Source: an uncultured euryarchaeote (GTDB lineage: Archaea > Thermoplasmatota > Poseidoniia > Poseidoniales > Poseidoniaceae). Taken from it: a stretch of DNA of 64,000 nt. Position 1 is the stretch's first letter. Each line of letters opens with the position of its first letter. The translations under genes and the position numbers were made by a program. Below the pieces are notes generated by a model. That model saw only the letters and a list, made by a program, of their open reading frames with translations. It searched no databases and was not told the origin of the DNA. Of the stretch, positions 1,884-17,948 are shown piece after piece. The DNA lies in contig CALBRH010000055.1 of the NCBI GenBank assembly GCA_937899865.1, positions 1-64,000 on the forward strand. The letters are read 5' to 3'.

Positions 1884-2645
1884 ATGTCTCGAATAATTAT
1901 GGCAGTTGACCGCATGCAGTGGGGTGCGGAAGAATGGCAATTTGCAGACTTATACATGCCTGACGATGATTCACCATTTGCTTCTGAACATGGAATACCT
2001 TGCATAATGCTAATCCATGGAGGTTTTTGGAAAACTAAATACGGTTTAGAATTGATGAAACCTATTGCTGAAGATTTAGCTGAAGCAGGTATTGCTGCTT
2101 GGAATATTGAATTCAAAAGATGGAGTGACAATGAAGAAGGTGTATGGATGGATACTCTATCGGATGTCTTACGTGCTTGGGGACAGTTAGCGCTACTTCC
2201 TCGAATCGATATTATGAGATCGATGGTGATGGGTCATTCTGCTGGAGGCCAATTGGCACTACTATTGGCTGCAAAAGCAGAGAGAAAACCATGGTTAGCA
2301 ATTGCTCAAGCTCCAATTACAGACTTAATTGGTGCAGATCATGCTAAACTATCAGACGAAGGGGATGCTGTTAGAAAATGGATAGGTTGTACTCCAGAGG
2401 AAGACACAAAACTTTGGTCAAACCTTAACCCAGTCGATAACATTCCTATTTCACCGGTTCTAATAATACATGGAGAAGAAGATGACGAAGTCCCTCTCTC
2501 CCAATCTGAAACCTATGCTAGAGTAATGAGTGCTAAAGGTGCTGATATCCAAAAAGTCTGGCTTCCCGGAGACCATTTCTCAATTATTGATGCCGCTAGC
2601 GATGATTGGTTGGTTCAACTCAATGCTATACTTGATTGGTTCTGA
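1884..2645 (+). CDS. Alpha/beta hydrolase, HSL/arylformamidase-like
   Basis: HGGFW oxyanion motif, GHSAGG nucleophile elbow, HGEEDDEVP (Asp), GDHF (His). Confidence 0.85.
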   Translation: MSRIIMAVDRMQWGAEEWQFADLYMPDDDSPFASEHGIPCIMLIHGGFWKTKYGLELMKPIAEDLAEAGIAAWNIEFKRWSDNEEGVWMDTLSDVLRAWGQLALLPRIDIMRSMVMGHSAGGQLALLLAAKAERKPWLAIAQAPITDLIGADHAKLSDEGDAVRKWIGCTPEEDTKLWSNLNPVDNIPISPVLIIHGEEDDEVPLSQSETYARVMSAKGADIQKVWLPGDHFSIIDAASDDWLVQLNAILDWF

Positions 2646-2683
2646 TGGAATAATAATATGTCATATGACCTATTGGCTCAATC

Positions 2684-3499
2684 ATGGACTTGCTCAATCA
2701 TAGTTTCCCATTTTCAAAAACTGCCCTTAATGGCAAGCATGCACTTATCTTCGGTGCAAGTAAAGGAATCGGGGCAGCGACTGCAAAAATGATGGCTATG
2801 GCTGGAGCAGATGTCACTTTGTGTGCTAGAAATTCTGAATCTCTAAAACGGGTAAAAGATGAGATTGAAACATTTGCAACAGGTAGAATTTCTTTTAGGA
2901 ATGTAGACTTAGAAGAGTTGTCAGTAATTGATGAAATCATTGATGAAATTACAACTAATTTAGGCCCTGTGCACATTCTAGTGAACAATTCGGGTGGCCC
3001 ACCTGGTGGCCCTTTACTAAAAAATTCAGTAGAAGATTTCGACGCACCATTTACTCGTCACTTACATGCTGCACATAAAATAACACAAAGATTAGTCCCC
3101 TTAATGGAATCTGAAGGCTTTGGTAGAATTATCCAAATTATTTCGACCTCTGTGAAGGAGCCAATCCCTAACCTTGGGTTATCAAATACCCTTAGAGGCG
3201 CTATGGCAAGTTGGTCCAAGTCATTATCAAGAGAATTACATCCTTGTATCACCATCAATAACGTCCTACCTGGTTTCACCGATACTGAAAGATTAGGCAG
3301 TTTAGCTGAATCAATTAATCAAAAAACTGGTAAATCAATCGATGAAATTCATGATGGATGGATGGGGCAAGTACCAATTGAGCGCCTGGTTGACCCACTT
3401 GAAACCGCTTCAGCAATTACTTTCCTTGCATTACCTTCCTCAGGAGCAATTAGAGGAGTATCATTAGCAGTAGATGGTGGCAGACTACGTAGTATCTAA
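2684..3499 (+). CDS. Short-chain dehydrogenase/reductase (SDR)
   Basis: GASKGIG Rossmann motif, NNSGGPP, STSVKEP, LSNTLR (atypical replacement of YxxxK), NNVLPG, VDGG. Confidence 0.9.
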   Translation: MDLLNHSFPFSKTALNGKHALIFGASKGIGAATAKMMAMAGADVTLCARNSESLKRVKDEIETFATGRISFRNVDLEELSVIDEIIDEITTNLGPVHILVNNSGGPPGGPLLKNSVEDFDAPFTRHLHAAHKITQRLVPLMESEGFGRIIQIISTSVKEPIPNLGLSNTLRGAMASWSKSLSRELHPCITINNVLPGFTDTERLGSLAESINQKTGKSIDEIHDGWMGQVPIERLVDPLETASAITFLALPSSGAIRGVSLAVDGGRLRSI

Positions 3500-4462
3500 T
3501 CACCGATACAAGTCAAACCATACAGGATAATGGTCAGAAACATCTGTATCATCAACCGAAGTATCAATACCCCACGAGCCCACTAATCGCCCGTTTAGAT
3601 CTCCAAGTGTAACGATTCTATCATAAGCACAATCTGTTGAGGAAACTGTTGTATCTGCAAGGTCATTAACCAACCAATTATATTGTGGTAGACGCATTGG
3701 TGACTCCCATAATTCTTGTGAGTTAGCATAACTGCAATCAGCGTTGAAATCTCCAAGAATAACTAAATCGGTTTCTGCTGAATTATTCTCGCGGTAACTC
3801 TCTACCACGTCATGTAGTGAATTTATCTCTTCAAGGGCTAGTGCAGGTTTGGTATGAACAGTAAACAAAGTAAAGTCGAATCCTGAACTATTACCACTCT
3901 CATTGAGTAATTCAAAAGTTGCAATATATGGCTCACGTTGGAAATAATCTCCTAGTGAATCATTGTATAACTGACCTTGACCGACTTCACGAAATACGGA
4001 TGTATTGTAGTAGTAAACATACTGCTCTTGTGATGATTGGTCATCTTCTTGAATCCCACTACGTGGACTCAAAGACATATTCCAAGTATTTTCTGAGACA
4101 TTATTAATCTCATCTAAGAAATCATAGGGCACTGTTTGATCAATATCTTTCACTTCTTGAACTGCGACCATATCATATTGCAAAACTGTATCAACTAATT
4201 GACTAACAACATCTGGTTTACCCATTTTTGTCTTGCCAAAAACCTTGATATTGAATGTAGCAATTCGAGCGACCTCTGAACGATTTAATTGTGGAATCTC
4301 CCTACCACCTAATTCATCTTCACCTTCGTCTTCTGATTCAGTCTCAACATAAATAAAAACAGTATTTTCCTCCTTGTGAACAATTAGGTGAATAGTCATT
4401 GGAGCGAGAATCAAAATCGCAACTAGACTCAATGCTTGGAGGTAGCCATCCATTGAACCCAT
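3500..4462 (-). CDS. Membrane-anchored DNase I-family endonuclease (EEP fold)
   Basis: N-terminal hydrophobic helix, then ATFNIKVFG, VQEVKD, FQREPY, VHTKP, GDFNADCSY, DCAYDRIV and SDHYPV, which together form the DNase I catalytic set. Confidence 0.9.
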   Translation of the reverse strand: MGSMDGYLQALSLVAILILAPMTIHLIVHKEENTVFIYVETESEDEGEDELGGREIPQLNRSEVARIATFNIKVFGKTKMGKPDVVSQLVDTVLQYDMVAVQEVKDIDQTVPYDFLDEINNVSENTWNMSLSPRSGIQEDDQSSQEQYVYYYNTSVFREVGQGQLYNDSLGDYFQREPYIATFELLNESGNSSGFDFTLFTVHTKPALALEEINSLHDVVESYRENNSAETDLVILGDFNADCSYANSQELWESPMRLPQYNWLVNDLADTTVSSTDCAYDRIVTLGDLNGRLVGSWGIDTSVDDTDVSDHYPVWFDLYR

Positions 4463-4547
4463 GACCAGTCGACTAATGATTGAGTTATCAAGATTTATTG
4501 TAAAACACCTTGGAAGAGGTTATTCATGAGTTACAAATGGCGCAGTC

Positions 4548-5384
4548 ATGAACGGAGAAGTCAGTCAAGAGCAGGCAGAGAAAATAATCGCCATGCTAAC
4601 TGAAGGTGGTGCAATAGAAAATGTCAATGCACCACTGGCGTTGAGGCTAATCCCTTTGGCTGAAGAATTAGATAACATGGAACTTGTTGAGAGATTACTT
4701 GAACATGCAAATTCATGTGCTGCTGACGAACTTGAATCAGGATGGGTTAAATTCGAGAGATTGCGATATGATAATTCATCAATTGACAACTTCGTTGAAT
4801 TGGCCGCTATAGCTGAGAAAATAACTGACGGTAGCCCACTTGCCGCGGCGGTTCTCCATCACGTAGGACTACTATACCTTGGTGCTGAACAATATGATGA
4901 TTGTCAAGTATTTACAACTCGTTCAATGCGAATTAGAGAAAAAATTGATGACAAAGCAGGTTTAGTTTACAGTTTGGCTGTTTTAGAAGCCTGTGACAAG
5001 CGACAAAATCAGCATGATTCTGCATTGATTCATGGAACTCGCAGGTTAGAGCTCTTGACGAATCTAAATGATCAAGAAGGTTTGATGGAGTCTCTTGCTG
5101 ATGTCGCCCATACCCAAGCAACATTGGGCTCATTTGATGCTGCAATTGATTTGTATACTCAATCTCTTGAGTTGTCAAATGAATTAGAAGATGTATCTGG
5201 CCAATTTGTCGCACGATGGGGCTTAGCTGACATATGTGAAATACAAGGTGATTACCAAACTGCTATGCTTCACCTATCCGATTGTCTACATTCATTCATC
5301 GCATTTGGCCTTCCAGCACCAATTCAAATTCGTCAACGTCTTGATGCTTTAACCAAATTAGAAGCCCCAAGTGAAGAAGAGTAA
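4548..5384 (+). CDS. Tetratricopeptide-repeat protein
   Basis: Repeated TPR-like helical pairs, e.g. ESLADVAHTQATLGSFDAAIDLYTQSLEL and ARWGLADICEIQGDYQTAMLHLSDCL. Confidence 0.7.
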   Translation: MNGEVSQEQAEKIIAMLTEGGAIENVNAPLALRLIPLAEELDNMELVERLLEHANSCAADELESGWVKFERLRYDNSSIDNFVELAAIAEKITDGSPLAAAVLHHVGLLYLGAEQYDDCQVFTTRSMRIREKIDDKAGLVYSLAVLEACDKRQNQHDSALIHGTRRLELLTNLNDQEGLMESLADVAHTQATLGSFDAAIDLYTQSLELSNELEDVSGQFVARWGLADICEIQGDYQTAMLHLSDCLHSFIAFGLPAPIQIRQRLDALTKLEAPSEEE

Positions 5385-5436
5385 TTATCCACAGCGATTA
5401 TGGTCTATGTACTACTCGCAGAAACAGTGGCAAGCC

Positions 5437-6684
5437 ATGAAGCATGACATTTTCTTCTCGATTAGTCAAACACCTGATGTTAATGGTGTTACTCCGACTG
5501 AGAGAAAAATGTTCGAAAACTATTTCCAACAACTCAAGCATGCAGACAAATTAGGATTTGGTGTTGGGTGGATTGCTCAAGCACACTTGTCTACTGAAAC
5601 TCAAAAATCAAATTCAATGCCAGTAGTACCGCATTGGCAAGGGGAAGTTGGCCTCTGTACTGATTTTCCTCAATTGGCTATGGAGAGTTTTCGTCAGACT
5701 CAAAACATTGATATCGGCTCAGCAGTCATTAGTATATTGGCTAGTGGCGGACCTATTGCACAAGCTGAAAGAATCGCAAATACTGTCCAATTTCTTTCGA
5801 TGTTAAATGACAACCGAAAGTTGCATGTTGGTTTTAGTGCCGGAAGATTTGAATTCATGGCAAGGCCTTATGGAATTTCACCAAGAAACTCTTGGGAAAG
5901 TGCAGCATGGAAAGCACTTAGAGGGCAAATCTTCCTTGAGGCAAGTGAAATCTTTCTTAGATTATTAAAAGGTGAAATAATCTCAAGTAGTCAAATTAGA
6001 AAGACCATTTTAACTAGAGAAAATTTTCGAAGTGATGAGGATTGGCAGGCAGTTCAAGAAGCATACCTTGCGGAAAATGATGAACAAAATATAACATCAA
6101 TTACAATTCCTAACAGATATAATTTCGAAGATATTTCCATCATACCTAAACAGTGGAATCGTTCACAACTACAACTTGTCGCTGGAACACATGACTCCAA
6201 AGCACAAGAATTCGTTAATACAATTTTGCCAGTTAGAGTTTTTAATCTCTCAATAACATCTCCTAAGATCATTGATGAAACCCACGAAAGAATGATGAAA
6301 AATTATCATTCCGATGGAGGAGAATGGGAGCGCAGTTATATGCCAAGAACTAGTTTTGTATTCATCAATGATGAAGAAGGTTTGACAAATGAACAACAAA
6401 GTCAAGCCGCTAATGTTGAAGCAAAGGAAGCATTACAAGCATATTGGAATGCATTAGAAGGAACTATCGATCCCGAAAAAGTTTCCAAAGCGGCTAATAA
6501 TGCGCTGATTGGCAATCCTGCTGAAGTAGCAAAACAAATTGTCGAAAGATTCCATCCCGATGACACGATAATGGCATGGTTTGATTTCTTCAATCATGAC
6601 TCTGAACGAGTTTGCCGCAATATGACTGCATACATGACAAAAGTTGTTCCAATGGTAGAAAAGATGCTGGAGGAGTTGATATGA
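5437..6684 (+). CDS. Luciferase-like (LLM class) flavin-dependent monooxygenase/oxidoreductase
   Basis: Start MKHDIFF resembles the typical LLM N-terminus. ADKLGFGVGWIAQAH, TQNIDIGSAV, LHVGFSAGRF and ALIGNPAEVAKQI match the bacterial luciferase fold. Confidence 0.8.
   Translation: MKHDIFFSISQTPDVNGVTPTERKMFENYFQQLKHADKLGFGVGWIAQAHLSTETQKSNSMPVVPHWQGEVGLCTDFPQLAMESFRQTQNIDIGSAVISILASGGPIAQAERIANTVQFLSMLNDNRKLHVGFSAGRFEFMARPYGISPRNSWESAAWKALRGQIFLEASEIFLRLLKGEIISSSQIRKTILTRENFRSDEDWQAVQEAYLAENDEQNITSITIPNRYNFEDISIIPKQWNRSQLQLVAGTHDSKAQEFVNTILPVRVFNLSITSPKIIDETHERMMKNYHSDGGEWERSYMPRTSFVFINDEEGLTNEQQSQAANVEAKEALQAYWNALEGTIDPEKVSKAANNALIGNPAEVAKQIVERFHPDDTIMAWFDFFNHDSERVCRNMTAYMTKVVPMVEKMLEELI
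6669..6673 (+). promoter_or_regulatory. Shine-Dalgarno GGAGG for the asparaginase-like gene
   Basis: GGAGG lies 7 nt before ATG 6681, which overlaps the LLM stop (ATGA). Confidence 0.6.
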
Positions 6685-7793
6685 GTTCAGAAAAAATACC
6701 CTCTGCAGTGCGTGAAGGCAAACCGGGAAGTTCAATGTATCCTGAATCATCGCTTGGAGAAGCGGTTGAAGGTATTCCTACTGGACGAGATGTCGATTGG
6801 GAGCCATTAGTTGATTATCGTCGAAATGGAGTTTCAGAAACTACAATTCATGGTGCAGTTGCCTGGGCGCATGGCGAAGAAGTAATACACTCATTTGGCG
6901 GCAATGTTCTTTGTTATGGAAGGTCCATGATGAAGCCATTTATGCTCAAAGCTTTCACTGAAGAGTTACAAGATGCGACTTGGGAGCAAAAAGCAATTGC
7001 AGTTGCATCACACAATGGTGATACTGAACACGTTGCTACTGCTCAATCTTTACTTTCAGAAGAAGAATGGCCTTTGATGTTGACTCCTCTTGATGTACCT
7101 TTAATTCAATTTGGCAGGCAAGTTCGCCGGCCAAGAAGATGGTATCACACATGCTCTGGAGAACACTCTGCCATCCTACATGGCTGTAGAAAAAAGGGCT
7201 GGAATCGCGCAGGTTATACATTGCCTAACCACCAAGTCTTCAAAGCTTATATGGAACAAATACGCACATATCTTGGAGATGACTGGAAGCCACTTCGAGT
7301 AGCAAAAGATGGTTGTGGCTTGCCTACTGTATCCAATACCGTCTCTGAACTTGCTCAAATCTATGCTGGTCTTGTTAGAGACAAAGATGATGATTGGATT
7401 TGGGAAGCGATGGTTAAACATCCAGATTTGGTAGGTGGGTTCAACCGTCTAGACTCAACTATATTGAAAGCAGGTGAAGGTAAGGTTATCGCTAAAGAAG
7501 GGGCTGATGGATTGCTTGGATTAGCTATTGAACACCCTGATTATCCAAAAGGATTGGGTGTTGTAATCAAGATTGCACATGGCTGGAATTCTCAAGCAAC
7601 ATGGTATATTGCAAGAGCTGTACTGGGCGTCCTTGGCATTGATTTGAGGAATCCATATCCTTTACACAGACAAAAGGCATTTATCGTGCCTGGTATTGTT
7701 CCACCAAAATATGTCAAATCACTAGGGGACATAGATACATGGGATGAATGGGATCCTGACCGTGATAGATGGACTTATGATATCGAGGTGTGA
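6681..7793 (+). CDS. Class 3 (Rhizobium-type, asparaginase II family) amidohydrolase with an altered Zn motif
   Basis: GRSMMKP (Arg-Ser-x-x-Lys), ASHNG, HTCSGEH (canonical NCSGKH), DGCGLP, HPDLVGG, AKEGADG. Confidence 0.85.
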   Translation: MSSEKIPSAVREGKPGSSMYPESSLGEAVEGIPTGRDVDWEPLVDYRRNGVSETTIHGAVAWAHGEEVIHSFGGNVLCYGRSMMKPFMLKAFTEELQDATWEQKAIAVASHNGDTEHVATAQSLLSEEEWPLMLTPLDVPLIQFGRQVRRPRRWYHTCSGEHSAILHGCRKKGWNRAGYTLPNHQVFKAYMEQIRTYLGDDWKPLRVAKDGCGLPTVSNTVSELAQIYAGLVRDKDDDWIWEAMVKHPDLVGGFNRLDSTILKAGEGKVIAKEGADGLLGLAIEHPDYPKGLGVVIKIAHGWNSQATWYIARAVLGVLGIDLRNPYPLHRQKAFIVPGIVPPKYVKSLGDIDTWDEWDPDRDRWTYDIEV

Positions 7794-9235
7794 GTTTGCA
7801 AATTGAAAATTTCATTGGTGGAGAATTCATAGCACCATTGAAAAAAAACTATCTCGAAAATCTTAATCCAGCTACTGGAAAAATCACATCAAAAATACCA
7901 AGTTCTACCAAAGAAGATGTAGAAATGGCAGTCAAGGCTGCTCAAAACGCCTTACCTAATTGGTCACAACTTTCGATTGACGAGCGAATCATTTGGCTAA
8001 GAAAAATTGCTAACGCCCTGGAATCACGCAAAGAAGATGTTGCCGCTTTAGAAAGCATGGACACAGGCAAACCAATTAGTCTCGCCAAGCGAGTAGATGC
8101 TGCACGTAGTGTAAGTAACTTCGAATTTTTTGCTGAACATGCTGAGAATCTAATTGAACTGAATTACAAAATGTCTGACGCAACTAATTATGTGACCAGA
8201 AAACCTGTTGGCGTTGTAGGTCTAATTACTCCTTGGAACCTTCCGCTATACTTGCTGACATGGAAAATTGCTCCTGCATTGGTAATGGGTAATACAATAG
8301 TGGCAAAACCAAGTGAAATGACTCCACTAACCGCTAACTTACTGTGCGAGATTCTAACATCAATAGAATTCCCAGAAGGAGTGATAAATATTGTTCATGG
8401 TCTTGGACCAAGTGCTGGTCAATCTATTTTAGAACATCCAAACATCAAGGCAATCTCATTTACTGGCGGTACTGCAACTGGAAAGATTGTTGCACAAACA
8501 GCTGCACCTATGTTCAAAAAATTATCACTTGAACTCGGTGGTAAAAATGCTACCATTATTCTTGATGATGCTGACTTGCCAAATGCAGCAAAAGGTGCTG
8601 CTAGAGCAGCATTTACGAATTCTGGCCAAGTATGTTTATGTGGTTCAAGAATTCTTGTTGCTGACAACATCTATGATGAATTTGTTACTTTATTGATTAA
8701 TGAAGTTGAATCCATGACAATTGGTAATCCAAGTGATGAAAACACTGACATCGGTTCTGTAATTTCATCTGAACACATGGAAAAGGTCCTCTCATACATT
8801 GAACTTGCCAAACAAGAAGGTGGGAAAATTTCTGTGGGAGGCTCCAAGTTAACACTACCTCCTCCTAATGCTGATGGCGCATTCATCGAACCTACTCTTA
8901 TCGAAGGTTTAGCAATTGATTCCCGATGTGCAACTGAAGAAATTTTTGGACCTGTAGCATCAATTCATCGATTCATTACTGACGATGAAGCAATTGAAAT
9001 GGCTAACATCACTGAATATGGTTTAGCAGGCTCGGTCTGGACTTCAAATCCTACTCGTGGCAAATCTGTCGCTGAGCGAATAGATAGTGGTATTTTGTGG
9101 GTAAATACATGGCTTCACCGTGACCTTAGAACTCCATTTGGTGGTGTCAAAAGTTCAGGAGTAGGTAGAGAAGGTGGCGACTGGTCACTGAATTTCTTCT
9201 CTGAACTCAGCAATATATGTGTAAAAGAAGAATGA
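7790..9235 (+). CDS. amnC: Aldehyde dehydrogenase of the 2-aminomuconate/2-hydroxymuconate semialdehyde dehydrogenase (ALDH8-like) type
   Basis: ITPWNLPL, FTGGTATG, LELGGKN (Glu), GQVCLCGSR (Cys), EEIFGPV. The two substrate-binding Arg contexts of this subfamily are present (AARSVSNFEFFA, WLHRDLRTPFGG). GTG start overlaps the upstream TGA; TTG at 7796 is an alternative start. Confidence 0.8.
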   Translation: MSLQIENFIGGEFIAPLKKNYLENLNPATGKITSKIPSSTKEDVEMAVKAAQNALPNWSQLSIDERIIWLRKIANALESRKEDVAALESMDTGKPISLAKRVDAARSVSNFEFFAEHAENLIELNYKMSDATNYVTRKPVGVVGLITPWNLPLYLLTWKIAPALVMGNTIVAKPSEMTPLTANLLCEILTSIEFPEGVINIVHGLGPSAGQSILEHPNIKAISFTGGTATGKIVAQTAAPMFKKLSLELGGKNATIILDDADLPNAAKGAARAAFTNSGQVCLCGSRILVADNIYDEFVTLLINEVESMTIGNPSDENTDIGSVISSEHMEKVLSYIELAKQEGGKISVGGSKLTLPPPNADGAFIEPTLIEGLAIDSRCATEEIFGPVASIHRFITDDEAIEMANITEYGLAGSVWTSNPTRGKSVAERIDSGILWVNTWLHRDLRTPFGGVKSSGVGREGGDWSLNFFSELSNICVKEE

Positions 9236-9271
9236 ACATATCTTGATAAGCAAATTCATTGAATTCACGCT

Positions 9272-9997
9272 ATGTCCGAGACTGGAACATTGCCATTGTT
9301 TGTTCTTCCAATGGTTCTTGTTCCAGGAGAGATACAAAGTCTGCGGATTTTTGAACCGCGATATAGGCAAATGCTCGATGACTGTCTGCTTGATGGCAAA
9401 CCATTTGGCATGATTATGACAGATCCTCTCGCATTCCATAATGGATGGAATGGGCCTCGAGCATTTGGATGTGAAGCAGAAATTATCAGTCATGAAACCA
9501 AAGGAAGTAATCACTTCATTGAATTTGTTGGCCGAAGACGGTTTAAAATCGACAGAGTAATCGAACCTGCTCTTCCACCTTTTGAGGATGAATCAATGGC
9601 TGATTTGATTACGGAAATTGGAATTCTTCCCGACTTAGAGACAATTCTTGAGAGAATTCCAGAAGATAGTGAACATTCGAAACTATATCTTTCAGCAGAT
9701 GTGACTTTCTTAGATGATGAACAAGAATTAACTGAATTTCAACAAACTGAATTAAGGTCTACACTTAATGGTATATTGGGTAAAATTGGTGGAATTTTGC
9801 AAATTGAAAAGGATACTTTAGAGGATTGGATTGAAGATAGAACTGCGACTGTTATTGATGAAAGTTCATCATCTATGTTTGCAGTTGCTGCATTAACTAT
9901 TAGTGACCCAGAAAATAAGTATCAATTATTATCATGTTCTGAACTGAAAGAGGTATTCCTAAAATTGACAAGATTTCTTGCAGAAATGGATGTTTAA
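9272..9997 (+). CDS. LON peptidase N-terminal (substrate-binding, PUA-like) domain protein
   Basis: LPLFVLPMVLVPGE...LRIFEPRYRQMLDDCL...FGMI and GRRRFKI. No ATPase or protease domain. Confidence 0.8.
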   Translation: MSETGTLPLFVLPMVLVPGEIQSLRIFEPRYRQMLDDCLLDGKPFGMIMTDPLAFHNGWNGPRAFGCEAEIISHETKGSNHFIEFVGRRRFKIDRVIEPALPPFEDESMADLITEIGILPDLETILERIPEDSEHSKLYLSADVTFLDDEQELTEFQQTELRSTLNGILGKIGGILQIEKDTLEDWIEDRTATVIDESSSSMFAVAALTISDPENKYQLLSCSELKEVFLKLTRFLAEMDV

Positions 9998-10049
9998 CTC
10001 AATAGATTGATAGCGTGACCTTCAAAACTCCAACGCCTGTGGTTTAACC

Positions 10050-10871
10050 ATGTCCGTTCACGGTCAAGCCAAGAAGGTCACAACTCATACGCTTCAAGAA
10101 ATGAAGCGTGCTGGTGAGAAAATCACTATGCTTACCGCATATGATTACTCACTAGCAAAATTGGTTGACAATGGCGGAGTGGATGTAATTCTTGTAGGAG
10201 ATTCGGCATCAAATGTAATGGCTGGGCAAGTTACTACAGTGCCGATGACTTTGGATCACATGATATACCACGCTCAATGTGTAAAGCGAGCTGTTGACAG
10301 AGCACTTATTGTAGTGGATATGCCGTTTGGAACCTATCAAGGTAATTCTGCAATTGCTCTTGAATCTGCTATTCGAATTATGAAAGAAGCAGAAGGTCAT
10401 GCTGTCAAGTTAGAAGGTGGGGCTGAAATTGTTGAGTCAATTAAGAGAATTCTAACTGCTGGTATTCCAGTAATGGGACATCTTGGACTTACTCCTCAAT
10501 CAATTTACAAATTTGGCACATACAGTGTTAGAGCAAAGGAAGATGATGAAGCGGCTAAGTTAATTGAAGATGCTAAAATCCTTGAAGAAGCTGGTTGTTT
10601 TGCAATTGTATTAGAAAAGATTCCCCGTGAACTAGCAAAGAAAGTAAGTGAGGCGATTAACATACCAACCATTGGAATCGGCGCTGGCCCTGATTGTGAT
10701 GGACAAGTATTGGTATTGCATGATTTGCTTGGCATAACTATGGACTTTTCACCAAGATTCCTTAGGAGATATCTAAATCTTGCAGAATCAATTGATGGTG
10801 CAGTAAAGCAATACTGCGAAGATGTTAGAACTGGCGATTTCCCTAATGATTCTGAGAGTTATACATCATAG
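10050..10871 (+). CDS. panB: 3-methyl-2-oxobutanoate hydroxymethyltransferase
   Basis: [50 protein letters not shown]. Confidence 0.97.
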
Positions 10872-11366
10872 GCCCATACTGTAAACTAGCAAAGCGCCAG
10901 AAAATGAGCCAATATCAACAGCAAATGCATGCCATACACCATACCTAAATGGTGGCAAATCATACCTTCCCCAAGAGGTAGAAATCCAAACCCATAGTAG
11001 CAAAGCACCATAGCCGCCACAAAATAATGCGCCCCATCCTGAGAACCAAACCACAAAGAAAATTACTCCAGGTAAAGCAATACCCATGCTGTACTCATAC
11101 CATCTTGATGCTTCTCCCCTTACCAGTATGAAATAAAGTAATGGAGAAAGAAGAATCGAAGTCAAAATTGCTCCTTGGGGTGGTGAAGGCCAACTATATT
11201 CGGGAGTGATATATTGCTGGAAGATAATTCCTACAATCATACCAAATAATGCTGGTGCGATAATGTGTCTTATTCCAGTATCAAAATCAATACCTCTTAC
11301 ACGGTCTAATTCTGATTCATTGGACGAGCTTGCATACTGAGATACCTCAATTTCTAACTCGTCCAT
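10866..11366 (-). CDS. Hypothetical multi-pass membrane protein
   Basis: 166-aa ORF with about 5 hydrophobic segments; its stop overlaps the panB stop region by 6 nt. Confidence 0.7.
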
Positions 11367-11453
11367 AATTCACCCAATCAGCGCTGGTGTTTGAGCCTTA
11401 GGGCGAGGATATTATCCGTTTATGATATAGGCAACCTACTCATAGCGTGCAAC

Positions 11454-12350
11454 ATGGCGCAGGGCGAGATTGTTGCGGGCTGTTTAGCACCGCACCCACC
11501 CCACTTGGTTTATGCTGAGAATCCAGAGCAGAATGAACCGGTTGCAGAAGGTGGCTGGGAACAGCTTAGATGGGGTTATGAACGACTTAGAGACTCGCTA
11601 AAGGGGATAGAATATGATGCGATAGTAATTCTATCGCCACACTGGCAAACCTATGTAGGAACTCATTTCCTTGGACTAGAAAATTTCCAAAGTCTTTCTG
11701 TAGATCCTATTTTTCCCAACCTATTTCGCTATCACTACGACATGAATGTTGATGTTGAACTTGCTCAACAGATTCATGACAAAGCCGACAAAGCAGGTTT
11801 GACAGTCAAGATGATGACTAATCCTGATTTTAGAGTAGATTATGGAACTATTACCACAGGCCACATGTTTAGACCACAATGGGATAAGCCATTAGTGGTA
11901 ATTTCCAGTAACCGCTCAAGTGCATACTATTCAGTTGAAGTTATGCAAGAAATGATGATAGAACTTGGTAAAGCAACACGTGAAGCGATTTTGGAAAGTG
12001 GAAAGAAAGTTGTTGTATTAGCAAGTAACTCATTATCTCATCGTCATTTCACCACTGAGTCAGATATTCCAGAAGATATGAGCAAAGAGCACATTACTAG
12101 TCATGCTATGCATTTGTGGGATATGCGAATTATTGACTACATGAAATCAGGTCAATGCCAGAGAATTATTGATGAAATGCCTGAATTTACCGAACAAGCG
12201 ATTGCTGAAACAGATGGTGGAGCATTTACTTGGTTGCTATCTACTCTGGAAGTCCCAAACTATCCAGCAATTCTCCACGGATACGGCACAATTATTGGCA
12301 CTGGTAATGCAATCGTTGAGTGGCCAGTCTACAAACATAAGGAGGCATGA
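11454..12350 (+). CDS. amnB: 2-aminophenol 1,6-dioxygenase catalytic (beta) subunit, LigB-type extradiol dioxygenase
   Basis: MAQGEIVAGCLAPHPPHLVYAENPEQNEP...GGWEQLRW, SPHW, SVDPIFPNLFRY, FRVDYGTITT, SNSLSHRHF, AETDGGAFTW and GYGTIIGTGNA closely follow AmnB/CnbC-beta as I recall it. The His/His/Glu iron ligands and catalytic His and Tyr positions are present. Confidence 0.9.
   Translation: MAQGEIVAGCLAPHPPHLVYAENPEQNEPVAEGGWEQLRWGYERLRDSLKGIEYDAIVILSPHWQTYVGTHFLGLENFQSLSVDPIFPNLFRYHYDMNVDVELAQQIHDKADKAGLTVKMMTNPDFRVDYGTITTGHMFRPQWDKPLVVISSNRSSAYYSVEVMQEMMIELGKATREAILESGKKVVVLASNSLSHRHFTTESDIPEDMSKEHITSHAMHLWDMRIIDYMKSGQCQRIIDEMPEFTEQAIAETDGGAFTWLLSTLEVPNYPAILHGYGTIIGTGNAIVEWPVYKHKEA
12341..12345 (+). 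promoter_or_regulatory. Shine-Dalgarno GGAGG for the alpha-subunit fusion gene
   Basis: GGAGG lies 7 nt before ATG 12353, which supports that start (MTNGEIV, parallel to MAQGEIV). Confidence 0.6.
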
Positions 12351-12352
12351 AA

Positions 12353-13744
12353 ATGACTAATGGTGAGATTGTTGAATCATTTGTTGTACCTGTTCATCCA
12401 CACACTGTGCTGGCACCTGAACAAAATGAGGGTTGGGGCAGATTAAGAAAAGCATATGATGATGCTGCAAAAATTATCCAAGATAGTGGTGCAGATTTAT
12501 TGATTATTTATTCAACCACTTGGCCAAGTATCATTGGCCATCAAATTATTTCAGACCCTAATCCTGAATGGGTGATGGTAGATCATGACTTCCATGAGTT
12601 AGGTTCAATTCATTACTCATTCAAGATTGATGTTGAATTTGCCGAGCAATGGAATGCAGAAAACAAATCACGTGGATTACAAAGTCGATGTGTGAACTAT
12701 CATGGTTTTCCGATTGATGTAGGTTCAGTAGTTGCACTTACTCTACTAAATCCAGAAAATAAAATACCAGCAATTATCGTTTCGTCTAATGTTTATGCCG
12801 ACAGGAGTGAAACTACAGTCCTAGCTAAAGCATGCCGAGATTTGGTAAAAAGAACTGGACGTAAAGCTGTAGCAATCACTGCAATGTCCCTTTCAAATAG
12901 AATGTTCACTGAACATATCGACCCTAAAGATGACCGTATCCATTCTTTGAAAGATGATGAATGGAATCAAAAGATATTGGAATTTTTATCTGAAGGTAGG
13001 CTTGAGGATGTTGGCCAACTCTCAAGAACTATTCAGCGACAGATACGTGTTCAAAAAGTGGTTAATTTCAAGCCAATGTGGTGGTTATCTGCAATGAATG
13101 ATAATCGAAATAATTTGACTGGTAATGTTCTAGCATATGAGGGAATTCACGGCGCAGGTTGTGCTGTGGTAAATCTCAATCCTACGCCCTCTGGATTTGG
13201 TGACAAAGAATATGATGAAGATGATGTTGAAATTTTTGCTGGTGAAAGGGGCGTATTGGACTCTAACACACAACAAGAAAGTAAGATAGAAACAGACGAT
13301 GGACCTGCTTTATGGGAGCCAACTAAGGCTGAAGGTTCAGTTAATACAGATGCTGCTCCAAAACCCGTTGGTGCATATCCGCATGCAAGAAGAGTTGGTG
13401 ACTTGATTTACTTGTCAGGAGTGGGTCCAAGGCAGCCTGGAACTAATGAGATTCCTGGTGGGCCAATTCATGACAATAGCGGTAAACCTCTCAACTATGA
13501 CATAAAAGAACAGACTCATGCTGTTGTCAATAACATCGCTAGAATTCTCGAAGAAGCTGGTTCATCACTTGACAAAGTTCTCGATGTGACTTCTTTTTTA
13601 GTAGATATGGATCGTGACTTTCAAGGTTACAATGAAGTTTGGGCAGAAACCCTTGGTAAAGTTGGACCTACTAGAACTACCTTAGCAATAAGGGCTTTAC
13701 CAACACCAATTGCCGTAGAGATGAAGGTTATCGCCAGTATTTGA
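12353..13744 (+). CDS. amnA: Fusion: 2-aminophenol 1,6-dioxygenase alpha subunit + acidic linker + RidA-family (2-aminomuconate deaminase-like) domain
   Basis: The N-terminal ~270 aa (ADLLIIYSTTW, VNYHGFPIDVGSV, IDPKDDRI...DDEWNQKIL, LAYEGIHGAGCAVV) match AmnA. The C-terminal APKPVGAYPHARRVGDLIYLSGVGPR...PTRTT...IAVEMKVIA is RidA with its catalytic Arg. One continuous frame. Confidence 0.88.
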   Translation: MTNGEIVESFVVPVHPHTVLAPEQNEGWGRLRKAYDDAAKIIQDSGADLLIIYSTTWPSIIGHQIISDPNPEWVMVDHDFHELGSIHYSFKIDVEFAEQWNAENKSRGLQSRCVNYHGFPIDVGSVVALTLLNPENKIPAIIVSSNVYADRSETTVLAKACRDLVKRTGRKAVAITAMSLSNRMFTEHIDPKDDRIHSLKDDEWNQKILEFLSEGRLEDVGQLSRTIQRQIRVQKVVNFKPMWWLSAMNDNRNNLTGNVLAYEGIHGAGCAVVNLNPTPSGFGDKEYDEDDVEIFAGERGVLDSNTQQESKIETDDGPALWEPTKAEGSVNTDAAPKPVGAYPHARRVGDLIYLSGVGPRQPGTNEIPGGPIHDNSGKPLNYDIKEQTHAVVNNIARILEEAGSSLDKVLDVTSFLVDMDRDFQGYNEVWAETLGKVGPTRTTLAIRALPTPIAVEMKVIASI

Positions 13745-13872
13745 ATTACCGGATTTCGGACATAATCCTTAGATTTCTTTAGTAATCAATAACTACCTTC
13801 GGTTGTTACCGCCCAATATTGATAGGTATTTGGTAGAAATACGGTAATTTACCAAAATGAGGTGAGATTTCA

Positions 13873-15291
13873 ATGGACATAAAATCAACCGCAGACAAAT
13901 TGCTGAAGGGTGATGTTTCGGGCGTTGTTGATGATGTTAAATCAACCATCAAAAGATCATTGACATTAGTTGGAGTAATTATTGTCACTGTAGCCGCAAG
14001 TATTGGCTCAGGGTTATTTGTCCTTCCTTCTTTTGCTGCCTCAGTAATGGGTCCAGGAATATGGTTGGCATTTTTACTGGCCGGAATCGTGTTTTTACCT
14101 GGTGCTTTGTCAAAATCAGAACTGGCTTCTGCAATGCCAGTAAATGGTGGTGCATATGTTTACCTCGAACGGTCATTCGGACCAATTATTGGAACCATTA
14201 GTGGTTTAGGATTATGGGCTTCATTTCTACTGAAATCTGCCTTTGCATTGATTGGTTTTTCCGCTTACATGTATGCGGTAACGAATTATCTTGACATATC
14301 TACTAACGCTACGTTTGTTATCATGTCTGCACTAGCATTGATTACTATACTCAATATCTTTGGTATTAAGAAAGTCAAAGCATTTCAAACACCAATCTTG
14401 GCATTAACTACAATATTGATTTTAGTCATATGTTTCATCCAATTATTCGATGCAAGTTTTGATTTTTCCCGCCCCATTGATGGAGCATTTGACGTTTCAA
14501 GAGATGACCCAGTATTGGTCGCAGAGGCTGCTGCGTTAGTCTTTGTCGCTTATGCAGGAATATACAAAGCAGGGGCTTTGGGTGGAGAAATTAAGGAACC
14601 AAAAAAGAATCTACCTGCTGGTATGCTATTATCTCTACTACTGATTACTTTGCTATATGTGGTTGTTACATTCATTATGATGGGGGCTGTAGAAGGCGAA
14701 TGGTGGGTTAATTCAGATGGTAGCCCAAGAGAAGATCCGATCTTTGCCTTCGTAGATGCTGTGGCATCGACTGAAATTGGCATTGCTATGGCGCTATTAG
14801 CTTTTCTTACAATGATTTCAGGTGCTCTATCAGGATTATTGGCTGCATCAAGATTCTTGTTTGCAATGGCCAAGGATTGTCTTTTACCAGATAATTTAAG
14901 TGAAACAAATGAGAAATTTGGTACTCCTCATTGGTCAATTATTATTACAGGTGTTGCAATGGGAATTTGCATCCTAACATTACCGGTCAAGGATGTTGCT
15001 AAATTAGCCTCAGGATTCCAAATTATGGTCATTGTAGCCTTGAATGCTTGTGTTATTATTCTAAGAAGAGAAAATCAAAAACACGAATGGTACCAACCAG
15101 AATTTAAATCTCCATTGTACCCATTTGTCCAGGTCTTTGGTATAATTGCGGGCGCAATTCTAGTCTACTTGATGGGTTCTAAAGCCATAATTGGAGCATT
15201 AGCCGCCATAGTTCTTGGACTTTCTACCTACAAAATTTATGGTGAAAAGAACTACAAGAATTTGGAAAATACAAGTTTGGAATCTGAATGA
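13873..15291 (+). CDS. APC-superfamily amino acid/amine permease
   Basis: About 12 TM helices; IGSGLFVLP, SELASAMPVNGGAYVYLERSFG, FVAYAG, GGEIKEPKKNLP, SRFLFAMAKD. Confidence 0.92.
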   Translation: MDIKSTADKLLKGDVSGVVDDVKSTIKRSLTLVGVIIVTVAASIGSGLFVLPSFAASVMGPGIWLAFLLAGIVFLPGALSKSELASAMPVNGGAYVYLERSFGPIIGTISGLGLWASFLLKSAFALIGFSAYMYAVTNYLDISTNATFVIMSALALITILNIFGIKKVKAFQTPILALTTILILVICFIQLFDASFDFSRPIDGAFDVSRDDPVLVAEAAALVFVAYAGIYKAGALGGEIKEPKKNLPAGMLLSLLLITLLYVVVTFIMMGAVEGEWWVNSDGSPREDPIFAFVDAVASTEIGIAMALLAFLTMISGALSGLLAASRFLFAMAKDCLLPDNLSETNEKFGTPHWSIIITGVAMGICILTLPVKDVAKLASGFQIMVIVALNACVIILRRENQKHEWYQPEFKSPLYPFVQVFGIIAGAILVYLMGSKAIIGALAAIVLGLSTYKIYGEKNYKNLENTSLESE

Positions 15292-15303: not shown

Positions 15304-17934
15304 TCACGAAACTCTAGTCCAAGAACCATCTGGACCAACATTCCAATATTGAATTTCACTACTGACATCAACGTACCAGCCGCTAGCACCTTGCTGGCTG
15401 GCATCTATTGCTTGCATAACTCCTAATCTACCAGCTTCAACTGCTAATCGTGTCTTTTCTTGAGGAGATAGTGTTGGCGCCATATTGGTATTCTGATTTG
15501 GTGGTGCTGATTGAGCAACTGCTGCTTCTTTTGGCTCCTCTTCGGAATAATCGTCTTCATCATCATCATAGTAGTCTTCATCATCATATTCGTCATCGTC
15601 AAACCAATCTCCATCTTCTGGTTCATAATTTGCTCTACGCACCAATACTACCATTGTTGTCAAAATCAAACCAAGCAATACTGCTGCAATTGTCATGGCA
15701 GTATTTGTCGAACCAATAGCTCCGCCAAGCAGAACAGACTCAACATCAAAGAATGCTTGAGTAACTAAACCATTCCAAGTAATGCTGCAAGATCGGTCTA
15801 AGCCAGATTTTGAAATTTCCAATTCCCAAGTATCAGATGTGATAAATTTGTCAGGACCAGAGGTACAACTAATGGTTGTGTTTTCAGGCTCAACTGGTAC
15901 TTTGTTATTGTTAATATCTACTCCATATACACGCAATAAAGCGATATCCCCTTGCTTGTAATCCTTACTCTCTATTTCACCAAACAATTGTATGGCTTGA
16001 CCTGGATTAACTATCAATGGAATAGTATGCTCTGCATTATCTTGAGAAATTGTCAAGCTATACTCTCCTGACACATTTCCGGTAAAAGTCCAGTATCCTC
16101 TACCTGCAATCGATGGAACAAATTCACCAATTGTTGAATTTAGGTTTGTTGATACTGATTCTGCAGGAGCAAGATTATTTCTTGAATCAGAAATTTGAAT
16201 GAAAATATCTGATTCTACTCCTGATTCAACTTCAAAGCCTGACTCTTGATTAGTGATTATTTGTCTAGCTTCGCCTGCAGAAACTGTTAGAGAGACTATA
16301 GAAAATACTCCGGCTGCATTAGCTTGAATCTCATGACTACCAATAGTTGTAGGAATCCAATTATAATCCAGTAAAGACATGCTCAATGTTTGATCTTCGC
16401 CATCGATTGTCCAATTAACAAATATATCACTAAGTTGATTACCATAAGAATCAAAGAACCGAGGATTCAAATCAAATGGGACATCAATAGGAATCTTTTG
16501 ACCTTGCCCATTCAATTCAATTACAGCTAGTTCTCCAAAACCTACTTGCTCGATAGATTGAGATTCGAATAAAATACCAGATGCCTCGTCAAACCAACTT
16601 CCTCTAACCGCAAATGCTCCAACTGAGTCTGGGATTAGAGTGTAGTAATCTTGTTGAGAAACTAATGTTGACTGATTACCAATCAAAACCTCTACCGAAC
16701 CATTAACGTTCCAAGTATTACCTGCTAAGTCATAGGCTTGAACTACAACTGTTGACTGTTGCCCAACTGCAAGGTTTTGAGGAGTCATTTTTATTCTTGT
16801 ATCTATTGCAAGACCGTGTTCAACTGTTACAGAAGTTGTTGAAATAAAACCTGAGTCATCCATAGAGATTGTTTGAACTCCCATAGTCATAGGAGTCCAA
16901 TACACTCTGCCATTTTCTTGACTTAATGTTCCGGAACTGACAGTGAAATTAGTAATTGGCGGAGTAATTAAGCCAGAGAAGCCAAGATTATCTGTACGGA
17001 AGGAAGCAAGTTCATACATCTCACCAGCATAATACACATCGTCATTAGGAATTATTGCCAATGAAGAGGCTGTAGCATCAGCAGGCACAACCCTAATTGT
17101 TCCAGTACCAGAGACAGGCCCTGCAGAAACTGTAACATTCCACACACCTGGATTTGAAGCATAGTAATAACCTGTATTGTTAATACTTCCATTCTCTACA
17201 AACCACAATTGTGAACCTGCAAGAGTTGTATCCATGGAATAGCCATTAACATCTACCAAATTTGGCTCCAACTGTAATGGTGAGCCGCTTCGAACCAAGA
17301 TATCATTGGCAAAAATGAATTCATAAGGCGATCCTGCGACAACTTCAACAGTTGAAGTAGCCTCCATTTGATATAACCTAGCAGTCAGTTGATAGCTTCC
17401 AATATCAAGTGGAATCCACACTGGATTGCCTTGACCAAAGTACTCTCCATCAATACTCCATGCTGCTTGATCAGTTGGATTTGGATTTCCTCTCGCATCT
17501 ATCAAATTTGCCGTAAGAATATTGTTTTGTAGAACTTGCCCAGTAGCAATTGAGATTTCAAGAGATTGTCCAATCCCAGGATTAACTGTGATGTTAAACT
17601 CATCCGTCAAATTAGTGTGCCTGGCTTGTATAGTAATTACTCCAGAGTTCCATGGATAGAAAGTACCTTCATCTGTAATTGTACCATTAGTGGAAGACCA
17701 TATTATGTTACCAGCAACTTCACTATTTACCGAATCATATAATTTAGCTGAAAAAGTAACTACTTCATCAGCGCTCATAATATATGTCGGTGATGTAATT
17801 TGAATTCTTACTGGGGAACTACTTGGCATAATTGTAGAATTATTTTCAGATAAATGGTCACTATCGAGATCAACTGGCATCGTGCTAAGTAGCATCAATA
17901 CAATGATAGAAATCGGCAGTAGTTTTCTAAACAC
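15304..17934 (-). CDS. Membrane-anchored surface protein (876 aa): signal peptide, ~8 Ig-like repeats, TM helix, acidic cytoplasmic tail
   Basis: Signal MFRKLLPISIIVLMLL; periodic D-x-x-G-N motifs every ~80-95 aa; TM AMTIAAVLLGLILTTMVVLV followed by RR and a D/E/Y-rich tail. Confidence 0.85.
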   Translation of the reverse strand: MFRKLLPISIIVLMLLSTMPVDLDSDHLSENNSTIMPSSSPVRIQITSPTYIMSADEVVTFSAKLYDSVNSEVAGNIIWSSTNGTITDEGTFYPWNSGVITIQARHTNLTDEFNITVNPGIGQSLEISIATGQVLQNNILTANLIDARGNPNPTDQAAWSIDGEYFGQGNPVWIPLDIGSYQLTARLYQMEATSTVEVVAGSPYEFIFANDILVRSGSPLQLEPNLVDVNGYSMDTTLAGSQLWFVENGSINNTGYYYASNPGVWNVTVSAGPVSGTGTIRVVPADATASSLAIIPNDDVYYAGEMYELASFRTDNLGFSGLITPPITNFTVSSGTLSQENGRVYWTPMTMGVQTISMDDSGFISTTSVTVEHGLAIDTRIKMTPQNLAVGQQSTVVVQAYDLAGNTWNVNGSVEVLIGNQSTLVSQQDYYTLIPDSVGAFAVRGSWFDEASGILFESQSIEQVGFGELAVIELNGQGQKIPIDVPFDLNPRFFDSYGNQLSDIFVNWTIDGEDQTLSMSLLDYNWIPTTIGSHEIQANAAGVFSIVSLTVSAGEARQIITNQESGFEVESGVESDIFIQISDSRNNLAPAESVSTNLNSTIGEFVPSIAGRGYWTFTGNVSGEYSLTISQDNAEHTIPLIVNPGQAIQLFGEIESKDYKQGDIALLRVYGVDINNNKVPVEPENTTISCTSGPDKFITSDTWELEISKSGLDRSCSITWNGLVTQAFFDVESVLLGGAIGSTNTAMTIAAVLLGLILTTMVVLVRRANYEPEDGDWFDDDEYDDEDYYDDDEDDYSEEEPKEAAVAQSAPPNQNTNMAPTLSPQEKTRLAVEAGRLGVMQAIDASQQGASGWYVDVSSEIQYWNVGPDGSWTRVS

Positions 17935-17948
17935 ATTTACACATCCTA

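Follow-up and report, generated by a model that had tools for sequence, protein, structure and literature searches.

Meta-cleavage of 2-aminophenol is carried out by the products of the amn, cnb and nbz gene clusters, known from Pseudomonas sp. AP-3, P. pseudoalcaligenes JS45 and Comamonas sp. CNB-1 (the pathway is represented in this work by the solved entries 8ihg, 3vsg, 7txy and 6izh). The catabolism of 4-hydroxyacetophenone in Pseudomonas fluorescens ACB involves a Baeyer-Villiger monooxygenase (HAPMO), an aryl-ester hydrolase and a ring-cleavage dioxygenase. The classical kynurenine pathway, as described in Burkholderia cenocepacia, consists of tryptophan 2,3-dioxygenase (TDO), kynurenine formamidase (KynB/AFMID), kynurenine 3-monooxygenase (KMO), kynureninase, 3-hydroxyanthranilate dioxygenase (HAO), 2-amino-3-carboxymuconate-6-semialdehyde decarboxylase (ACMSD), 2-aminomuconate-6-semialdehyde dehydrogenase (AMSDH) and 2-aminomuconate deaminase; a 2026 preprint confirms that the steps beyond 2-aminomuconate are still being worked out in eukaryotes, and it names the bacterial deaminase step (bioRxiv 10.64898/2026.06.05.730449). 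In this work we analyzed a 64,000-nucleotide stretch of DNA (the window) from an uncultured Poseidoniaceae archaeon of Marine Group IIa (MGIIa), whose genome assembly is 2.01 Mb in size and 91% complete, and in particular a set of catabolic genes between positions 1,884 and 15,291 that shares features with all three systems.

Like the amn, cnb and nbz clusters, the locus encodes a two-subunit LigB-type dioxygenase (catalytic β subunit and non-catalytic α subunit), an aldehyde dehydrogenase (ALDH) of the AMSDH type and a RidA-type deaminase. Unlike in those clusters, the deaminase is fused to the α subunit, Trp196 of the β subunit is Arg, and genes for 4-oxalocrotonate decarboxylase, hydratase, aldolase and acetaldehyde dehydrogenase were not found here; the module is joined to TDO, KynB, a luciferase-like monooxygenase (LLM), an asparaginase-II-like hydrolase (AspII-like) and a short-chain dehydrogenase/reductase (SDR), and instead of forming a xenobiotic island it belongs to the core genes of an entire archaeal order. 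As in the classical kynurenine pathway, TDO comes first, KynB is found in bacterial operons, and the last two enzymes are AMSDH and 2-aminomuconate deaminase. However, KMO, kynureninase, HAO and ACMSD would be replaced by the LLM, the AspII-like hydrolase and the dioxygenase AmnBA, the proposed by-product is aspartate and not alanine, and no quinolinate/NAD branch would be possible. The likeness to 4-hydroxyacetophenone catabolism is by analogy only and lies in the proposed order of aryl ketone, aryl ester, phenol and ring cleavage: HAPMO belongs to the type I (FAD/NADPH) Baeyer-Villiger monooxygenases and the LLM to the luciferase-like, type II-like flavin enzymes, and here the hydrolase is asparaginase-like and the phenol an aminophenol.

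Comparative genomics shows that TDO, a formamidase, the SDR, the LLM, the AspII-like protein, the AMSDH-type ALDH, AmnB, AmnA and a RidA deaminase belong to one functional set. Its assignment to tryptophan and kynurenine is very probable, and we think it rather probable that the window encodes the greater part of a pathway that degrades tryptophan via 2-aminophenol without kynureninase, with the steps ordered as described below. A first-pass annotation of the window had suggested a non-canonical route, possibly for tryptophan and kynurenine, in which a LigB-type dioxygenase replaces HAO and ACMSD; that idea is supported by bacterial operons with TDO and KynB, by the shared phyletic pattern of the genes and by the missing classical genes. 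Its alternative suggestion, that algal aminoaromatics are the substrates, found no support, and the end product that it proposed, 2-oxoadipate, is a plausible candidate.

Gene order and distribution of the two modules

Window proteins were identified from a listing of open reading frames (ORFs) and from family scans. The genes of main interest are the following:

1884-2645, + strand: alpha/beta hydrolase (Pfam BD-FAE and Peptidase_S9)
2684-3499, + strand: SDR (adh_short, 126 bits)
5437-6684, + strand: LLM (PF00296 below cut-off; fold confirmed by a structure model)
6681-7793, + strand: AspII-like protein of the Asparaginase_II family (PF06089, 164 bits)
7790-9235, + strand: ALDH (closest solved relative AMSDH, 4e-139)
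11454-12350, + strand: AmnB-like protein (5e-114 to 8ihg_A)
12347-13744, + strand: AmnA-like protein fused to RidA (3vsg_A and 6izh matches)

The core of the locus is formed by two conserved modules, SDR–LLM–AspII-like–ALDH and AmnB–AmnA::RidA. Three junctions (LLM/AspII, AspII/ALDH and AmnB/AmnA) are ATGA- or GTGA-type overlaps, with a Shine-Dalgarno-like GGAGG just 5' of the LLM/AspII and AmnB/AmnA overlaps.

With an alignment of distant LLM relatives, at least 586 loci were recovered from genomes of species in Bdellovibrionota, Planctomycetota, Acidobacteriota, Myxococcota, Sericytochromatia and other groups, among them the cultured Sulfidibacter corallicola M133, which has a complete genome; the best 80 loci were compared. 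In these best 80 loci the neighbors matching window proteins were SDR (56 loci), ALDH (54), AspII (46), AmnB (41) and AmnA::RidA (36), and clustering of the remaining ORFs added TDO in 17 and a cyclase of the KynB family (PF04199) in 19. Locus L113 reads TDO-SDR-LLM-AspII-ALDH-AmnB-AmnA::RidA-KynB on one strand (L112, L076, L089 and L093 are less complete), and full operons occur in Bdellovibrionota, Planctomycetota, Acidobacteriota and Myxococcota. Bacterial operons that contain both TDO and KynB thus link these genes to tryptophan and kynurenine. Some genomes have a split operon (TDO-SDR-LLM-ALDH-RidA), and in all five of these that were checked AmnB, AmnA and AspII lie together elsewhere, and an AspII orthologue is present in 10/10 tested bacterial genomes with LLM, five of them from Silvanigrellaceae and relatives and from Sericytochromatia. 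A different arrangement is found in L050 and L052-L054 (Silvanigrellaceae and related metagenome-assembled genomes), in which kynB is divergent from an LLM-SDR-GNAT acetyltransferase group and AspII is located elsewhere; the GNAT protein might acetylate the aminophenol.

Within Poseidoniales, AmnB was found in 193 and the AspII-like protein in 197 of 201 genomes, both in all 24 genera and 3 families, and the genes are core in streamlined genomes of 1.3-2 Mb. Most of the 21 Poseidoniales loci compared have SDR, LLM, AspII and ALDH in that order on one strand. The four genes are directly adjacent in Marine Group IIb (MGIIb), and a tetratricopeptide repeat (TPR) protein gene (plus a nuclease gene in this genus) intervenes between SDR and LLM in MGIIa. 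The four-gene unit lies beside AmnB-AmnA::RidA in MGIIa and in some MGIIb genera, and in locus L038 a single strand carries SDR-TPR-LLM-AspII-ALDH-AmnB-AmnA::RidA, the matches being separated by short gaps only. In split archaeal genomes the AMSDH-type ALDH is always with LLM-AspII and not with AmnBA, which ties the two modules functionally. In the MGIIb loci L040-L046, a gene for a FabH-like 3-oxoacyl-ACP synthase III lies 3' of the ALDH gene on the same strand; no close homologue of it was found in the genome studied here.

Phylogenetic profiling, which had been proposed with the first-pass annotation as a check, came out in its favor: of 101 Thermoplasmatota genomes, the 15 with LLM are also the 15 with AspII, AmnB is present in these and in one more, in which the AmnB locus reaches the contig end, and all 16 carriers have TDO. 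In the two carriers outside Poseidoniales the genes are clustered, and in one of them TDO is next to LLM. Genomes that are related cannot be counted as independent, but several archaeal lineages and many bacterial phyla show the pattern again. Since the same genes co-occur and co-locate across archaea and many bacterial phyla, the grouping is not due to chance.

Predicted functions of the encoded proteins

The product of 11454-12350 is predicted to be the catalytic β subunit of a LigB family extradiol dioxygenase of the 2-aminophenol 1,6-dioxygenase type. It aligns over its full length to the solved β subunits (8ihg_A, 5e-114; 3vsg_B, 3e-109), is 60-68% identical to characterized 2-aminophenol dioxygenase β subunits, and keeps the residues H13, H62 and E251 (Fe ligands) and H195 (base) in 3vsg_B numbering, whose roles are those reported from structure work on CnbC. 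Among archaeal and bacterial orthologues whose alignment covers the columns, the motifs APHPPH, SPHW, SH(R)HF and AE are invariant, except that SPHW reads TPHW in 9 archaeal sequences. The AmnB and AmnA genes are adjacent with an ATGA overlap, and their best solved matches are β and α subunits, respectively. The next frame, 12347-13744, would encode a non-catalytic α subunit plus a RidA-type 2-aminomuconate deaminase domain: the α part (to about 13180) matches 3vsg_A (6e-42 for residues 8-276) and lacks the metal ligands (in the alignment to 3vsg_A, STTW replaces SPHW and there is no Glu at the E251 equivalent), and the α subunit, an acidic linker and the RidA domain (about 13325-13744) form one reading frame. 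The RidA domain (PF01042, 86 bits) has the 2-aminomuconate deaminase 6izh as its best solved match (3e-25, 92.5 bits; the next, a generic RidA, scores 70 bits) and contains the motifs PTRTT, with the conserved Arg, and VEMK. AmnA and RidA are two overlapping genes in streamlined MGIIb and are fused in most bacterial loci. From these relatives, the substrate of AmnBA is predicted to be 2-aminophenol and its product 2-aminomuconic semialdehyde.

The ALDH encoded at 7790-9235 is predicted to be of the 2-aminomuconate-6-semialdehyde dehydrogenase type. Its best solved relatives are the AMSDH entries 4i1w and 4npi (4e-139, 467 bits), and R120, N169, E268, C302 and R464 (4i1w numbering) are all aligned identically; we take Cys302, Glu268 and Asn169 to be catalytic, and Arg120 and Arg464 to bind the substrate carboxylate, as in the AMSDH structure. 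Against TIGR03216 it scores 564 bits, under the cut-off of 693, and an amino substrate and a hydroxy substrate therefore cannot be told apart for this enzyme. Every Poseidoniales locus examined, and 56 of the 80 bacterial ones, has the SDR gene beside or near that of the LLM, and the solved relatives of the SDR are generic and ketoreductase-like; the protein may reduce 4-oxalocrotonate towards 2-oxoadipate.

The LLM scores 19.7 bits against PF00296, under the gathering cut-off of 27.9, and 27.9 against TIGR04027, far under the cut-off of 412.9. The TIM-barrel LLM fold of 5437-6684 was confirmed in a predicted structure: the AlphaFold model (pLDDT 92.9, pTM 0.92) has luciferases, RslO1 and 3,6-diketocamphane monooxygenase as its top Foldseek matches (probability 1.00, TM 0.56-0.63) and reaches 0.98-0.99 with LLM clusters of the ESM Atlas. 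The subfamily is narrow: of 1.8 billion cluster representatives, no more than 311 matched at E<=1e-3. Flavin reductase genes adjoin LLM in other lineages, namely a PF01613 reductase directly upstream in one MGIIb genus, between the aspartyl-tRNA synthetase (AspRS) and SDR genes, and Fre-type reductases upstream in four Bdellovibrionales loci, and these fit a two-component monooxygenase. An assignment as F420-dependent reductase was considered and rejected on account of these adjoining reductases and of the fold search, in which luciferase and Baeyer-Villiger types came out ahead of F420 enzymes. We propose the LLM as a kynurenine (or N-formylkynurenine) Baeyer-Villiger monooxygenase. An LLM of the same subfamily (45% identity over the first 212 residues) also occurs in a eukaryotic protein, P0123 of Andalucia godoyi (1501 aa), whose gene model joins it to GATase and ApbE FAD:protein FMN transferase domains; an AspII domain was looked for in this fusion and none was found.

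The AspII-like protein belongs to the same fold family (PF06089) as the Rhizobium etli class 3 asparaginases ReAV and ReAIV (PMC12292245, PMC8602277), with the Ser-Lys residues kept. In class 3 asparaginase, Arg47, Ser48, Lys51, Ser80 and Lys263 are essential by mutagenesis; Arg47 binds the substrate α-carboxylate, and Ser48-Lys51 and Ser80-Lys263 form tandems (PMC12292245). Alignment to ReAV shows all five to be kept, together with Cys135, Cys189, Asp187 and Tyr156; the five are invariant in 54 archaeal and bacterial orthologues, in which GRSMMKP, (A/S)SH and KEGADG are also conserved; the exceptions are single substitutions in GRSMMKP and KEGADG, none of them at a catalytic residue. Unlike in ReAV and ReAIV, the zinc site Cys135-Lys138-Cys189 is not kept, Lys138 being replaced by Glu (CSGEH) in 16/16 archaeal and most bacterial orthologues, and Cys249 of ReAV is Asp; since the zinc site is changed, we do not file the protein as an asparaginase. 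The protein differs further from the R. etli enzymes in its aromatic catabolism context and in the very high identity between its archaeal and bacterial orthologues (63-77%); in a quick tree the Poseidoniales sequences were grouped at SH-aLRT 87. It is best described as a predicted class-3-asparaginase-like Ser-Lys hydrolase with an altered metal site. An intact β-acyl-enzyme apparatus and α-carboxylate Arg, combined with a changed leaving-group/metal site, would be expected of a β-aspartyl aryl ester/anilide hydrolase, and we propose it as a β-aspartyl-(2-aminophenyl/2-hydroxyanilide) hydrolase that releases L-aspartate. The metal-site positions co-vary: most orthologues combine C-S-G-E-H with D-G-C, and about ten bacterial ones (e.g., L084, L092, L099 and L119), a subgroup that has lost both Cys together, combine S-S-G-H/Q-H with D-G-D.

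Proposed entry from tryptophan and missing classical genes

TDO is encoded elsewhere in the genome (G000:C63:51566-52693; PF03301, 198 bits), among unrelated genes, and was detected in 60/61 Poseidoniales. The first-pass annotation had listed HAO, ACMSD, kynureninase and TDO, as well as 4-oxalocrotonate decarboxylase/hydratase, as missing from the window, which was confirmed for the window. The search was extended to the whole genome: besides TDO, the 91% complete assembly yielded no HAO, no kynureninase above cut-off, no Amidohydro_2/ACMSD, no KMO and no KynB. Proteins with a FAD_binding_3 domain were rejected as KMO candidates, the best being a geranylgeranyl reductase, and the only FAA_hydrolase in the genome is a YcgM-like 211-aa protein beside rpS8e; no FAA_hydrolase family member was noted, as far as annotated, among the gene clusters shared by several of the 80 bacterial loci. 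In 41 sampled Poseidoniales, kynureninase was above cut-off in one and HAO in two, the second only 0.5 bit above cut-off, and KynB (PF04199) was absent from all 41. The classical genes, a complete set of which would have spoken against the first-pass annotation, are missing from this genome and from 40 of the 41. The remaining genome, G035 (genus g19), is the only one sampled with both a true kynureninase (426 bits, C29:6106-7323) and a true HAO (162 bits, C44:106547-106987), and may have both routes or may be contaminated. Its matches show that the searches were able to find kynureninase and HAO; in the first HAO search the control had been silent, and the model is known to work from the HAO of G035 found in the order-wide search.

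For removal of the formyl group, the alpha/beta hydrolase at 1884-2645 is a candidate N-formylkynurenine formamidase of MGIIa, as judged by gene context. It contains an HGGFW oxyanion motif, a GHSAGG nucleophile elbow and later Asp and His residues; its best solved relative is a carboxylesterase (5e-17), and no known formamidase was among its solved relatives at E<=0.01. The gene is present in 19/19 MGIIa and 1/19 MGIIb genomes, and here, as in other MGIIa, it lies between AspRS and SDR, a slot taken by a Formyl_trans_N-like gene in one MGIIa genus and in MGIIb (e.g., L042:5942-7407 and L044:6607-7380). The in-place replacement suggests that both proteins handle a formyl group. The earlier description of the protein as formamidase-like is therefore supported by gene context and finds no counterpart in similarity to known formamidases; because it lacks such a match and is absent from MGIIb, we do not call it a formamidase from its sequence. 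A Formyl_trans_N-like enzyme acting on N-formylkynurenine would itself be new.

Proposed route and alternatives

In the proposed route, TDO would convert tryptophan to N-formylkynurenine, and the formyl group would be removed by KynB in bacteria, probably by the alpha/beta hydrolase here, and by the Formyl_trans_N-like protein in MGIIb. The LLM, with reduced flavin and O2, would then place an oxygen atom between the ketone of kynurenine and its aryl ring, with migration of the aryl group; this would give the 2-aminophenyl β-ester of aspartate, from which N4-(2-hydroxyphenyl)asparagine may form by rearrangement, and the AspII-like Ser-Lys hydrolase would split this product into L-aspartate and 2-aminophenol. 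AmnBA would open the ring of 2-aminophenol to give 2-aminomuconic semialdehyde, the ALDH would oxidize the semialdehyde to 2-aminomuconate, and the RidA domain fused to AmnA would deaminate 2-aminomuconate to 4-oxalocrotonate (2-oxohex-3-enedioate). Kynurenine is an aryl ketone, and flavin peroxides of LLM enzymes attack carbonyls, as in luciferase, diketocamphane monooxygenases and RutA. The scheme gives each conserved gene except SDR a step, and would thereby explain why kynureninase, KMO, HAO and ACMSD are dispensable. For the specific chemistry, i.e., Baeyer-Villiger oxygenation of kynurenine followed by hydrolysis to aspartate and 2-aminophenol, we estimate the chance at slightly under one half; cleavage of kynurenine independent of pyridoxal phosphate by an LLM Baeyer-Villiger monooxygenase and an AspII-like aryl ester/anilide hydrolase, with two new activities, is put forward still more tentatively.

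Several observations weigh against this scheme. We infer the substrates of all of the LLM, the AspII-like protein, the SDR and AmnBA, and the SDR, the most constant neighbor of LLM, has no allotted step. TDO is unlinked to the other pathway genes in Poseidoniales, over 100 kb separates the two modules in streamlined MGIIb, and synteny inside one order can be inherited and not selected. No genes of the DmpH/DmpE type (4-oxalocrotonate decarboxylase and 2-oxopent-4-enoate hydratase) were found in the genome, which leaves the fate of 4-oxalocrotonate unexplained. A tblastn search of this genome with the MGIIb PF01613 reductase gave nothing (the Fre type was not searched). Finally, the Trp196 that adjoins the catalytic His in the solved AmnB enzymes is replaced by Arg in 15/15 archaeal and 27/28 bacterial orthologues, and this could mean a carboxylated substrate and not plain 2-aminophenol.

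The last point is also the starting point of an alternative in which the LLM hydroxylates C3 of kynurenine (a KMO analogue), AmnBA opens the ring of 3-hydroxykynurenine itself, the resulting product is processed by ALDH and RidA, and the AspII-like protein finally cleaves the β-aspartyl ketone (C-C hydrolysis of a β-diketone) to release aspartate. 3-Hydroxykynurenine is itself an o-aminophenol whose carboxylate Arg196 could bind, the AspII-like protein keeps the Arg that binds the α-carboxylate of an aspartyl head group, and the location of AspII next to AmnBA in split operons fits a step before or after ring cleavage. However, aromatic hydroxylation is not typical LLM chemistry, and we know of no precedent for C-C cleavage by a serine hydrolase of the AspII fold. 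To accommodate a bulky acyl substituent, the pocket should have been remodeled further than is seen in an AmnB 60-68% identical to, and an ALDH with the same substrate-binding residues as, enzymes that act on small unsubstituted substrates. We consider this alternative unlikely. It is more improbable still that the locus is made of two unrelated neighboring modules, with the Amn/ALDH/RidA proteins scavenging natural or xenobiotic aminophenols and SDR-LLM-AspII acting on an unrelated amide. The wide separation of the modules in streamlined MGIIb would agree with this, as would the Lon-N and PanB genes that separate them in the window and the origin of the characterized Amn enzymes in nitroaromatic degraders. 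Against it stand the AMSDH-type ALDH that travels with LLM-AspII in split archaeal genomes, the bacterial operons that join all of the genes with TDO and KynB on one strand, the near-identical phyletic patterns of LLM, AspII and AmnB in the 101 genomes (AmnB in one more), and the core status of all of the genes in genomes of 1.3-2 Mb. That same core status, like that of housekeeping genes, could instead point to a biosynthetic role, in which 2-aminomuconic semialdehyde, which cyclizes spontaneously to picolinate, is used to form picolinate or another pyridine or to feed NAD synthesis; but flux would be drawn away from cyclization by the dedicated AMSDH and by the 2-aminomuconate deaminase, which is fused to the dioxygenase, no carboxyl would be left for quinolinate if 2-aminophenol is the substrate, and we regard this role as the most improbable of the three.

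A literature search (subscription journals were outside its coverage) found no description of the proposed route via 2-aminophenol. If the route is correct, it would be a new branch of tryptophan catabolism that bypasses KMO, kynureninase, HAO and ACMSD, yields aspartate and includes two new enzyme reactions, and it would form part of the core metabolism of Marine Group II archaea and be widespread among environmental bacteria, predatory ones included. It would also provide a natural function for 2-aminophenol dioxygenases, which have been studied mostly in degraders of nitroaromatics and chloronitroaromatics, and the aminophenol genes of the xenobiotic amn/cnb clusters might have been recruited from it as their natural source. 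Poseidoniales are among the most abundant planktonic archaea, and the route would bear on the recycling of dissolved protein and of tryptophan carbon and nitrogen in the surface ocean. S. corallicola M133, as a cultured carrier, makes it directly testable.

Intervening and flanking genes

The nine genes named in the first-pass annotation (those listed above, with the deaminase counted separately, and an APC permease gene) all exist at about the positions given there. That list was right in content and omitted the intervening TPR, Lon-N, PanB and nuclease genes, and its placement of everything on the + strand does not hold for two ORFs. The other features of the region are:

3500-4462, - strand: DNase-I-like EEP nuclease (family scan)
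4548-5384, + strand: TPR protein (TPR_12)
9272-9997, + strand: Lon N-domain protein, Lon-N (family scan)
10050-10871, + strand: PanB (family scan)
10866-11366, - strand: unassigned ORF (ORF listing)
13873-15291, + strand: APC permease (AA_permease_2, 139 bits)

The first five of these, which are unrelated to the set or unassigned, break up the gene set in the window. The EEP nuclease gene, between SDR and TPR, looks like an unrelated insertion into the operon; among the compared loci only L032, of the same genus, also has a nuclease there. The TPR protein gene occupies the same position in MGIIa loci and in one MGIIb locus, L038, and had no tblastn match in any of the 80 bacterial loci; the protein is a putative accessory of the archaeal lineage, possibly outside the pathway. 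Synteny of the APC permease, TPR protein, PanB and Lon-N genes is confined to the archaeal order. An APC match lies within a few kb of AmnA in 11/14 Poseidoniales Amn loci, in MGIIa and MGIIb alike, and none was found in the 80 bacterial loci; the permease is a possible tryptophan or kynurenine importer, the link being weak.

In one marine metatranscriptomic run, contigs were found that are 90-99% identical to the window on SDR, AspII, PanB, AmnB and AmnA, and contigs of close relatives in this RNA library span the AspII/ALDH and AmnB/AmnA junctions. Contigs of relatives hold only 7% of the sampled words, so that the run speaks to presence only and not to level or transcript ends, and the evidence is weak because DNA can occur in an RNA library. 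Directly downstream of the permease gene, 15304-27200 (- strand) encodes two adjoining very large surface-type proteins of 876 and 3083 aa, and a relative of the 876-aa protein is found near the Amn module in 8/14 compared Amn loci.

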